In this document: positions 25,714 to 26,758 of the stretch, in pieces
How positions within the stretch are numbered: position 1 is the first letter of the stretch
How the letters are laid out: each line of letters begins with the position of its first letter
Source: a virus
Taxonomy: Duplodnaviria; Heunggongvirae; Uroviricota; Caudoviricetes
Direction: 5' to 3' (one strand)
Length of the DNA stretch: 51,681 nt
Virus record (IMG/VR): IMGVR_UViG_3300047392_000113
Span: 119,152 to 170,832 of that record
The notes under the pieces: generated by a model
What the model was told of the DNA's origin: nothing
Database searches by the model: none
The model's input: only the letters and a program-made list of their open reading frames with translations
Made by a program: the position numbers and the translations under genes

Positions 25714-26196
25714 ATGAAGCGTATTGACATCGAAGAAGTAAAGGCTTTCATCGAGGCTCAATCTCCAGAAACAAAAATCTATATCGGTGGGGACTCTGAA
25801 CGATTCCCAATTGGTAATGAATGGTACGCAGATTACACCCTTGCAATTGTTGTTCACATTGATGGTAAACATGGTTGTAAGATTTTCGGTGAGGTTCAAC
25901 GTGAACGTGACTACGATCAAAAGAAGAATCGTCCACGTATGCGTTTGATGAACGAAGTATACAAGATTGCAGAGTTGTATCAAAAGCTACATGACGTTTT
26001 GGAAGACAGAGAAGTGGAAGTCCACTTAGATATCAACCCAAATGAAATGCATGGTAGCTCTTGTGTTATCAACGAAGCAACTGGTTACATTCGTGGTATG
26101 TGTAACGTAATTCCTTTGGTTAAGCCAAACGCATTCGCTGCATCTTACTGTGCTGACAGATTGAAGCACATCATGAGTAACCGTAAAGCTGCATAA
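25714..26196 (+). CDS. RNase H-like YkuK/DUF458-family protein
   Basis: IYIGGDS, LAIVVH, RLMNEV, VHLDIN, AASYCADR. Confidence 0.8.
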   Translation: MKRIDIEEVKAFIEAQSPETKIYIGGDSERFPIGNEWYADYTLAIVVHIDGKHGCKIFGEVQRERDYDQKKNRPRMRLMNEVYKIAELYQKLHDVLEDREVEVHLDINPNEMHGSSCVINEATGYIRGMCNVIPLVKPNAFAASYCADRLKHIMSNRKAA

Positions 26197-26203
26197 ATAT
26201 AAT

Positions 26204-26278
26204 GCGTTTGAAGCTCGATGGATGAGTAGGCGATTCTAAACCGCTGTGTAGCAGGTTCGATTCCTGTCAGACGCACCA
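26204..26278 (+). tRNA. Amber suppressor tRNA (CUA), Arg-like body
   Basis: Canonical numbering gives stem GGCGA/CCGCT and loop U32 U33 C34 U35 A36 A37 A38; CATAAATA at 26192-26199; CCA. Confidence 0.78.
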
Positions 26279-26290
26279 ATGACTTATTTT

Positions 26291-26341
26291 ATGAAAGGAC
26301 ATGCTATGGAGAAACTCTCAGCATAGATTCGACCACCGTAA
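26291..26341 (+). CDS. Amber minigene (MKGHA)MEKLSA-TAG-IRPP-TAA
   Basis: AAAGGA before ATG 26306; TAG 26324-26326; TAA 26339-26341. Confidence 0.4.
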
Positions 26342-26392
26342 GAATTCTCTTTGATTAATGTATTCATTTATTTTAAACAAGGAGAATTACAA

Positions 26393-26758
26393 ATGTGTAT
26401 CGAACTAAAAATTAAAGCAAAACATCTAGCCCTCGAGCCTAAAATTATTAAGCATGAGGAGCGAAAACTAAAGGGACAAATTAAGTACACGAAAGGTACT
26501 GATGCTAACCTGATCTATAAATTAAATGATCTGGTTAACCATCGTAAATGGAATGTGCGAAATGAATCTCGAGCCACTGAACTAGCAAGAGCATATCTCG
26601 CTGGTAAACCATACAGTTATGTGGAGAAGAAACGTAAGGATGACGTAATGTTCCAACTTTACATTGTTCCTCGTATCGTCTCTATGGTTACAAAGTACGG
26701 TAAAGGTGCGCAAAGAAAGATTGATGCTACTGTCATTAAAGAGTGGTCAAAACTCTAA
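26393..26758 (+). CDS. Basic hypothetical phage protein
   Basis: AAGGAG RBS; LKIKAKHLA.E..II, HR...VR.ESRAT.LA.AYL.GKPY. Confidence 0.75.
   Translation: MCIELKIKAKHLALEPKIIKHEERKLKGQIKYTKGTDANLIYKLNDLVNHRKWNVRNESRATELARAYLAGKPYSYVEKKRKDDVMFQLYIVPRIVSMVTKYGKGAQRKIDATVIKEWSKL

Follow-up and report, generated by a model that had tools for sequence, protein, structure and literature searches.

A complete phage genome record of 170,832 bp (40% GC, with terminal repeats) carries a compact unit in its final 51.7 kb (IMG/VR record IMGVR_UViG_3300047392_000113, positions 119,152 to 170,832; these 51,681 nucleotides, the whole stretch analysed, are called the window here). In this unit, the gene for a transfer RNA (tRNA) with the amber-suppressing anticodon CUA is followed in order by a short leader open reading frame (ORF) gated by an in-frame stop codon and ending in a candidate arrest motif, a predicted hairpin that sequesters a Shine-Dalgarno (SD) sequence, a gene for a 121-residue protein that we call X, and an intrinsic terminator. 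We propose that this unit is probably a translational attenuator of the erm/cat/SecM type for which nonsense suppression, meaning the balance of suppressor tRNA against release factor 1 (RF1), serves as the inducer. The proposal draws on what is observed: the elements themselves, their conservation, selection on the leader at the level of the peptide, covariation in the hairpin helix, and a match between anticodon and gating codon.

In the mechanism that we envisage, a ribosome would initiate at the leader ATG at 26306. If RF1 were to win at the UAG at 26324, the ribosome would terminate some 7 nt before the hairpin, leaving the SD of X paired and X off. If tRNA(CUA) were instead to decode the UAG, the ribosome would continue through Ile-Arg-Pro-Pro and dwell at Pro-Pro/TAA, where its leading edge would overlie some 6-9 nt of the 11-nt anti-SD arm, so that the SD at 26379-26384 would be freed and X translated. 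A first-pass annotation of the window had already suggested a switch in which readthrough exposes an Arg-Pro-Pro motif and controls the downstream gene, and this idea is now supported by conservation of the peptide frame, the covarying anti-SD helix, the anticodon/gate match and the standard genetic code of the phage; the anti-SD arm that abuts the leader stop is new with respect to that annotation.

A stop-gated leader upstream of gene X

The leader ORF (26306-26341, plus strand) starts 28 nt past the end of the tRNA and reads MEKLSA-TAG-IRPP-TAA. Its ATG at 26306 is followed by GAG AAA CTC TCA GCA, the gating TAG at 26324-26326, ATT CGA CCA CCG at 26327-26338 and TAA at 26339-26341, such that the base after the gate is A and Arg-Pro-Pro is encoded at 26330-26338. 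An SD sequence, AAAGGA (26294-26299, plus strand), lies 6 nt before this ATG and is conserved in relatives. A short ORF with its own SD thus stands immediately upstream of the candidate regulated gene, as an attenuator would require. The first-pass annotation had described the minigene as (MKGHA)MEKLSA-TAG-IRPP-TAA, and it is found where that annotation placed it; of its two possible starts only the second has an SD and is conserved, the alternative ATG at 26291 having neither. A search of the genome for other gated Pro-Pro leaders returned four loose regular-expression matches, none with the full design. Loose SD-ATG-TAG...Pro-Pro matches at genome positions 88540 and 138626 (window 19475) read M-TAG-QSKQIPP-L and MKRAKR-TAG-CRSDPP-Y.

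The arrangement is widely conserved. About 120 loci with X homologues were fetched from viral contigs, metagenome contigs and GenBank phages (cited below by L numbers), and conservation was counted over 80 distinct regions upstream of X homologues. The design, consisting of an SD-led start, 0-10 codons, an in-frame stop, 2-6 codons and Pro-Pro, is present in 76 of these 80 regions; the X homologues span 36-89% identity, and the design persists down to 36-43%. The gate is TAG in 75 leaders and TGA in one. Of the first 17 viral contigs, 16 have a tRNA(CUA) gene at a distance of 100-130 nt upstream of X and one has it at 2.5 kb, and tRNA and leader are physically linked within 94-130 nt in most loci; the synteny of tRNA, leader and gene in related phages, which the first-pass annotation had offered as a check, is therefore conserved. 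Two cultured phages carry the leader: Synechococcus phage BUCT-ZZ01 has MGGDAS-TAG-INLKPP-TAA, and Bacteriophage DSS3_MAL1 has MKS-TAG-IRPPP-TGA together with a perfect 10-bp anti-SD/SD helix.

Three of the 76 leaders are built on long ORFs. L068 has a 62-aa ORF followed by TAG-KVFKPP-TAA, L096 a 49-aa ORF followed by TAG-KAREPP-TAA, and L073 (~2670-2970) has MSL-TAG and then 97 codons that end in WAPP-TAA right at the anti-SD. L073, like L077, L079, L080 and L108, replaces the short extension by an entire ORF of about 100 aa behind the amber gate.

Selection on the leader as a translated peptide

The part of the leader before the gate varies in both sequence and length, the shortest being M or ML and the longest ten codons. 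Beyond the gate, Pro-Pro is found in all 76 leaders, including those that run on without a stop, and it is encoded by a full range of synonymous codons (first proline CCA 43, CCT 21, CCG 6 and CCC 6; second proline CCC 15, CCG 22, CCA 19 and CCT 20), as is the arginine (CGA, CGC, CGT and AGA). The residue that precedes Pro-Pro is R in 30 leaders, K in 13 and H in 8 (51 of 76), and 14 others have R-(G/S/D/E)-P-P. A test that imposes no frame finds the closest TAG upstream of Pro-Pro to be in frame with it in 61 of 76 cases, where about one third would be expected, and the closest ATG to share the frame of that TAG in 60 of 72. This recurrence and frame agreement lie far beyond chance and, judged from the sequences, the leader is selected as a translated peptide frame.

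The context of the gate is also biased. Amber codons are suppressed more readily before a purine and support the most efficient termination before U; among the 76 leaders, the base just past the gate is A 49 times, G 21 times, C 6 times and never T.

The residues around Pro-Pro recall a group of bacterial arrest peptides. In ApdA, ApdP, ApcA and the RAG-P of SecM, a basic residue and Pro-Pro likewise end a small ORF upstream of a regulated gene (PMC10951233, PMC12992588). RGPP and RAPP have been published as robust arrest motifs that are refractory to elongation factor P, and RDPP and RSPP as partially permissive for arrest and strongly avoided in proteomes (PMC12992588); relatives of the window's leader carry RGPP, RSPP and RDPP, which are named in the papers on RAPP/RGPP-type arrest peptides (PMC10951233, PMC12992588). 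The window itself differs from these peptides. Its motif, I-R-P-P-stop, has no residue between R and Pro-Pro and so falls outside the RAPP/RGPP definition, a release factor rather than Pro-tRNA would occupy the A site, the chain is only 11 residues long, and the leader is phage-borne. The genomic context of RAPP/RGPP peptides, which precede protein-localisation genes, or other genes in Streptomyces, is not found here either, as the downstream gene encodes a helical phage protein and no component of the Sec/YidC kind.

A stop codon follows Pro-Pro in 60 of the 76 leaders (TAA 46, TGA 11, TAG 3). Pro-Pro before a stop slows release of the peptide. In the other 16 leaders there is no stop after Pro-Pro, and the extension continues through the hairpin to the SD (L032, L042, L058 and L069). 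In L043 and L044 (upstream of 3001) the extension after TAG, VSRSPPKFLL..., is stop-free and in frame into the start of X, so that readthrough could there also yield an N-terminally extended X. These run-on lineages, and L043 in particular, are what one would expect if there were no true arrest, and if a readthrough ribosome simply unwound the hairpin while terminating at the second stop, with X expressed by coupling or re-initiation and Pro-Pro slowing release slightly or kept for another reason. We regard this explanation as improbable, since Pro-Pro is present in every one of the 76 leaders, usually after R, K or H or as R-x-P-P, matching published arrest motifs, and since the main ATG lies about 50 nt past the leader stop, which is far for re-initiation.

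A covarying hairpin sequesters the SD of X

An attenuator also requires that the end of the leader be coupled to the initiation site of the regulated gene. The 5′ anti-SD arm, AAUUCUCUUUG (26343-26353, plus strand, 11 nt), begins 2 nt past the leader TAA, and the 3′ arm, CAAGGAGAAUU (26378-26388, plus strand), contains the SD of X, AAGGAG, at 26379-26384. The hairpin formed by AAUUCUCUUUG and CAAGGAGAAUU has a minimum free energy (MFE) of -14.9 kcal/mol and a z-score of -4.1. In 61 of 62 distinct loci, the MFE structure pairs the GG of the SD with an arm whose first base falls at -4 to +7 nt relative to the last base of the second Pro codon, and the hairpin z-score against shuffles averages -3.3, lying below -2 in 53 of the 62. 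The SD of X is accordingly paired with an arm that a ribosome at the end of the leader would cover.

The helix covaries, as judged from the aligned sequences. With RNAalifold, a plain MAFFT alignment of the spacers gave no pairs because the arms are out of register, and it was replaced by a covariance-model alignment and by MFE-anchored counts. In the alignment of 35 matches to a covariance model of the 11-bp helix (alignment A5), 96.6% of cells are paired, compared with 54-66% when the partners are slid, and double changes occur at all 11 pairs, counts of pairs changed on both sides being inflated here by six minus-strand rows. The covariation score is 0.584, compared with 0.09-0.19 for slid partners and 0.206 for shuffled ones, and none of 500 shuffles reaches 0.584. 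When the MFE-anchored counts are restricted to the plus strand, the helix positions flanking the SD still alternate among UA, AU, GC and CG.

A ribosome has a textbook reach of some 12-15 nt past the first base of its P-site codon. When UAG occupies the A site, this reach would extend to about 26333-26336, short of the arm start at 26343; when CCG occupies the P site and TAA the A site, it would extend to about 26348-26351 and cover 6-9 of the 11 bases of the arm. The extension is at least four codons long, Pro-Pro included, in all 76 leaders, a minimum length that would fit a need for the ribosome that terminates at the gate to spare the helix.

The shortest leaders (ATG-TAG or TTG-TAG in L060, L062 and L070, and ML-TAG in L021) resemble two-codon minigenes, and they raise the question of whether the minigene acts as a drop-off or decoy element that sequesters or titrates the suppressor or RF1, like the bar minigenes of lambda, or as an untranslated RNA element with an mRNA-stabilising hairpin. 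Neither function would lead one to expect an in-frame Pro-Pro 3-8 codons past the gate in all 76 leaders with synonymous codon variation, or an arm placed exactly at the leader end and a helix that takes in the SD of X in 61 of 62 loci, and we consider this explanation highly improbable.

The suppressor tRNA and its match to the gate

The tRNA with anticodon CUA (26204-26278, plus strand, 75 nt) was called by ARAGORN and matches the Rfam tRNA model RF00005 over its full length (43.6 bits against a threshold of 29, E 1.5e-07), which bears out the reading of its anticodon in the first-pass annotation. It folds as a cloverleaf and has a 7-nt anticodon loop with U33, the CUA anticodon and a purine at position 37, as expected of an amber suppressor. 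The loop is UUCUAAA, CCA is encoded, the discriminator base is A73 and the variable loop has 5 nt; the body is unusual in having A8 and an A31.C39 mismatch. ARAGORN labels this tRNA Pyl, which is merely its name for the anticodon CUA; an identity as tRNA-Pyl was rejected on the grounds of the 5-nt variable loop and the normal 7-nt D loop, where a pylT-type body would have a 3-nt variable loop, a short D loop and a long anticodon stem, pyl genes not having been searched for.

Similar features recur in a comparison set of 57 distinct suppressor tRNAs, taken from L002-L083 and the phage's own genome and nearly all located directly upstream of X. The loop is C/UUCUAAA in 53 of these and A73 is present in 47, while the near-universal U8 is replaced by G8 or A8 in 17, and C.A or A.C occurs at positions 31-39 in 20. 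The bodies are very divergent, and a search for the parent isoacceptor among tRNA types found no consistent nearest type and no common parent. The suppressor bodies evolve very fast.

In one lineage the anticodon and the gate have changed together. At the suppressor position of L078 there is a tRNA with the loop CUUCAAA (anticodon UCA), and the leader gate is TGA: ATG TTG TGA GTA TAC GCG CCA CCT TAA, or ML-TGA-VYAPP-TAA. The L078 sequence is identical in two further metagenome records, L099 and L100, and is therefore not an assembly slip.

This match bears on what the device would sense. With the same architecture, the sensed variable might be RF1, or termination capacity, with the tRNA as a constant competitor, and X would then come on when host RF1 falls or is inhibited during infection, by analogy with the frameshift through which prfB senses RF2. 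The gate is inherently a competition between RF1 and the tRNA; the tRNA gene lies in cis and is probably expressed with the leader at all times, and would thus carry little information by itself; and U, the strongest termination context, never follows the gate. Against this, the tight linkage of tRNA and leader, and the change of the gate to TGA together with a UCA tRNA, make the tRNA part of the device, and no single release factor could be the conserved input because a TGA gate would mean RF2. We think it unlikely that termination capacity rather than the tRNA is what is sensed, and favour an attenuator whose inducer is suppression itself.

The suppressor genes also tend to have a sequence signal of their own. 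In the window, the box CATAAATA (26192-26199, plus strand) lies 4 nt before the tRNA and overlaps the TAA stop of the preceding RNaseH-like gene. Of 69 distinct suppressor tRNAs, 24 have a box of the form NATAAATA/CTAAATA in the 22 nt before them, compared with 17 of 598 other tRNAs (Fisher p 1.7e-15), and when ATATATA/TATAAT are added the counts become 39 of 69 and 39 of 598. Overall, TATAAATA/CTAAATA/ATATATA-like boxes are about 12-fold enriched upstream of suppressors relative to other phage tRNAs (positions in L003-L116), and the enrichment holds even where another tRNA ends 9-14 nt earlier. It follows that the module tends to have its own AT-rich signal, placed for RNA to start near the 5′ end of the tRNA. 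The first-pass annotation had called the box a late-type motif; the box is present as described, and the late-type label is only partly supported, by the enrichment before suppressors. Within the genome the CATAAATA motif shows no over-representation, and none is found before gp23, so that its identification as a T4 late promoter is unjustified and was rejected as unsupported genome-wide. The box may be a promoter or a processing signal specific to the module.

The phage uses the standard genetic code outside the leader

This is a T4-like water phage with a major capsid protein of the T4 type (Pfam Gp23, E 1.4e-141). ARAGORN finds 33 tRNA genes in the window, and the suppressor tRNA unit stands at the end of the main tRNA array. 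Recoding to code 15, wholesale or partial, was rejected, as 194 long non-overlapping ORFs of the 170.8-kb genome are intact in code 11; they end in TAA in 127 cases, TGA in 57 and TAG in 10, and the TAG codons at 13263, 25171 and 47983 were confirmed. Candidate frames joined across TAG fall almost all on the non-coding strand or in a non-coding frame, and the readthrough extensions behind TAG-ending genes are 0-22 codons long and give no hint of a functional readthrough product. The first-pass annotation had held that the long genes are whole in code 11, that TAG is rare and that there is no wholesale recoding, and both the 10 TAG ends among 194 and the extension check agree with it. Outside the leader, then, the phage uses the standard code and, because of this and because no long extensions follow TAG-ending genes, the leader is the only conserved TAG target seen.

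Relation to known systems and implications

The unit is similar in design to ermCL-ermC, cat/cmlA, SecM-secA and MifM-yidC2, in which a short SD-led ORF precedes an SD locked in a hairpin and a pause frees that SD. It differs from them in its input, which would be the decoding of a stop codon by a phage suppressor tRNA rather than an antibiotic or a secretion defect, and in an arrest motif that would be reached only upon readthrough. A precedent for sensing termination is provided by prfB, where RF2 autoregulates through a programmed +1 frameshift and an early in-frame stop senses the efficiency of termination; there the frameshift lies inside the regulated gene, whereas in the phage a suppressor tRNA would act on a separate leader. 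The closest parallels are engineered, in that TAG codons have been placed in trp/tna leader peptides and combined with an orthogonal tRNA(CUA) (PMC6412442, section 6). In these, too, suppressor-driven translation past a leader UAG decides downstream expression, but they act on transcription, through Rho/rut or an attenuator, whereas the phage leader is natural, is found in many lineages, and would act on initiation through the SD hairpin. We found no paper on a natural amber-gated leader switch in the literature searched, and leader-peptide attenuation with stop-codon readthrough as its input is not described there.

Phages that have been recoded to code 15 or 4 (bioRxiv 10.1101/2021.08.26.457843) are similar to this one in their tRNA(CUA) or tRNA(UCA), low GC content and rare TAG stops. 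They differ in that no long gene here contains an in-frame TAG and the sole conserved target of the tRNA is the leader. The sensing of suppressor tRNAs by phages was raised by Borges et al. only as a possibility (bioRxiv 10.1101/2021.08.26.457843). Suppressor tRNAs of phages that keep the standard code have until now been interpreted as intermediate steps towards recoding, and a conserved target in cis would give the suppressor tRNA a regulatory job instead. We tentatively suggest, with rather less confidence than we place in the attenuator, that the suppressor tRNA is a dedicated regulator with a 'private codon' and not a step towards recoding, and that it forms with X a feedback circuit that measures and sets the level of readthrough, tRNA against release factor, in the infected cell, can be re-keyed (UCA/TGA), and is widespread among T4-like phages of aquatic habitats, X by itself having 850 sequence clusters.

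Several points weigh against the attenuator as proposed. Charging of the tRNA, suppression, arrest at R-P-P-stop and induction of X, that is, the ON direction, are all predictions, and a transcript that carries both tRNA and leader is putative. The RPP-stop of the window differs from the characterised R-A/G-P-P, which leaves its stalling strength putative as well. The UCA/TGA match of anticodon and gate is suggestive and not statistical, because it represents a single evolutionary event. Alignment A5, with its six minus-strand rows, was fitted to the model of the helix. The modelled fold of X matches only generic helical hairpins and does not pin down its role. Finally, the gate is missing in L020 and L082, and the L125 and NCTB homologues are ambiguous. 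L082 has a tRNA-Val 22 nt upstream and no leader. L020 has an ungated ORF that ends in PRGPP-TAG and overlaps a decayed tRNA-like relic, and may be a leader that lost its gate. This relic, in a GC-rich lineage (L020 2770-3000), has a UCA-type loop and a weak Rfam match.

If the attenuator is confirmed, it would be the first natural counterpart, within the literature searched, of the engineered amber-leader switches, and the state of the genetic code would be added to the signals sensed by arrest-leader circuits. The X family would be flagged as probably tied to termination, suppression or ribosome rescue. As the module occurs in the cultured phages BUCT-ZZ01, which grows on Synechococcus elongatus PCC 7942, and DSS3_MAL1, which has a roseobacter host, it is directly testable, and the leaders offer compact, portable parts for synthetic suppression-dependent switches.

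Protein X and neighbouring genes

Gene X (26393-26758, plus strand) encodes a basic, all-helical protein of 121 aa with a pI of 9.97 and 28 K/R against 13 D/E, and AAGGAG lies 8 nt before its ATG, in keeping with the strongly initiated basic gene of the first-pass annotation. An intrinsic terminator with a 14-bp stem and a T-run (26770-26808, plus strand; terminator scan) closes the tRNA-leader-gene unit. The X family comprises 850 representatives of 50%-identity clusters at E<=1e-3, and its invariant residues include H50, R60, E78 and Y102. X and 81 family members gave no family match in Pfam, PHROG, NCBIfam or PDB sequences; megablast of the region against a phage collection found nothing, and the distant mode matched only the upstream RNaseH-like gene. 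An AlphaFold2 model of X (pLDDT 96.6) has a long helical hairpin (residues 3-32 and 38-69) and three short helices. Fold searches with PDB Foldseek, VIA wide, AFDB clusters, the ESM atlas and BFVD found only uncharacterised family members or generic helical hairpins, and a protein-atlas feature search gave no usable match. The coiled-coil arms of SerRS and FemA match X at Z 7.4-8.0, which is within noise for helical models. Because the outputs of other arrest-leader circuits relieve the condition that is sensed, we speculate that X acts on termination, on the suppressor or on the consequences of readthrough. By the same analogy it may keep readthrough in check or help to deal with it, or else strengthen it through positive feedback on RF1.

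A DUF458/RNaseH-like gene (25714-26196) precedes the suppressor tRNA. Between tRNA-Thr(AGU) and this gene lies a sub-threshold tRNA-like match (25610-25680, plus strand; 26 bits in Rfam against 29) that ARAGORN does not call.

Elsewhere in the window, a stand-alone GGQ-domain protein of 124 aa (45213-45587, plus strand; Pfam RF-1, 56 bits; motif GGGGQ) corresponds to domain 3 of class I release factors and resembles ArfB or PrfH; it may serve the phage in ribosome rescue or as a peptidyl-tRNA hydrolase. In the genome of L018 the GGQ gene lies about 1.6 kb from the suppressor tRNA. It was found in two of nine checked relatives that carry the tRNA-leader-X module, and a tight link between X and the GGQ protein was rejected on that count. 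Neither this genome nor those nine relatives have Pth2-like genes. Another ribosome-rescue element adjoins the module in BUCT-ZZ01, where ARAGORN predicts a permuted gene resembling transfer-messenger RNA (L002 4888-5306), with the tag ANDETFSMALAA, about 500 nt downstream of the X homologue.

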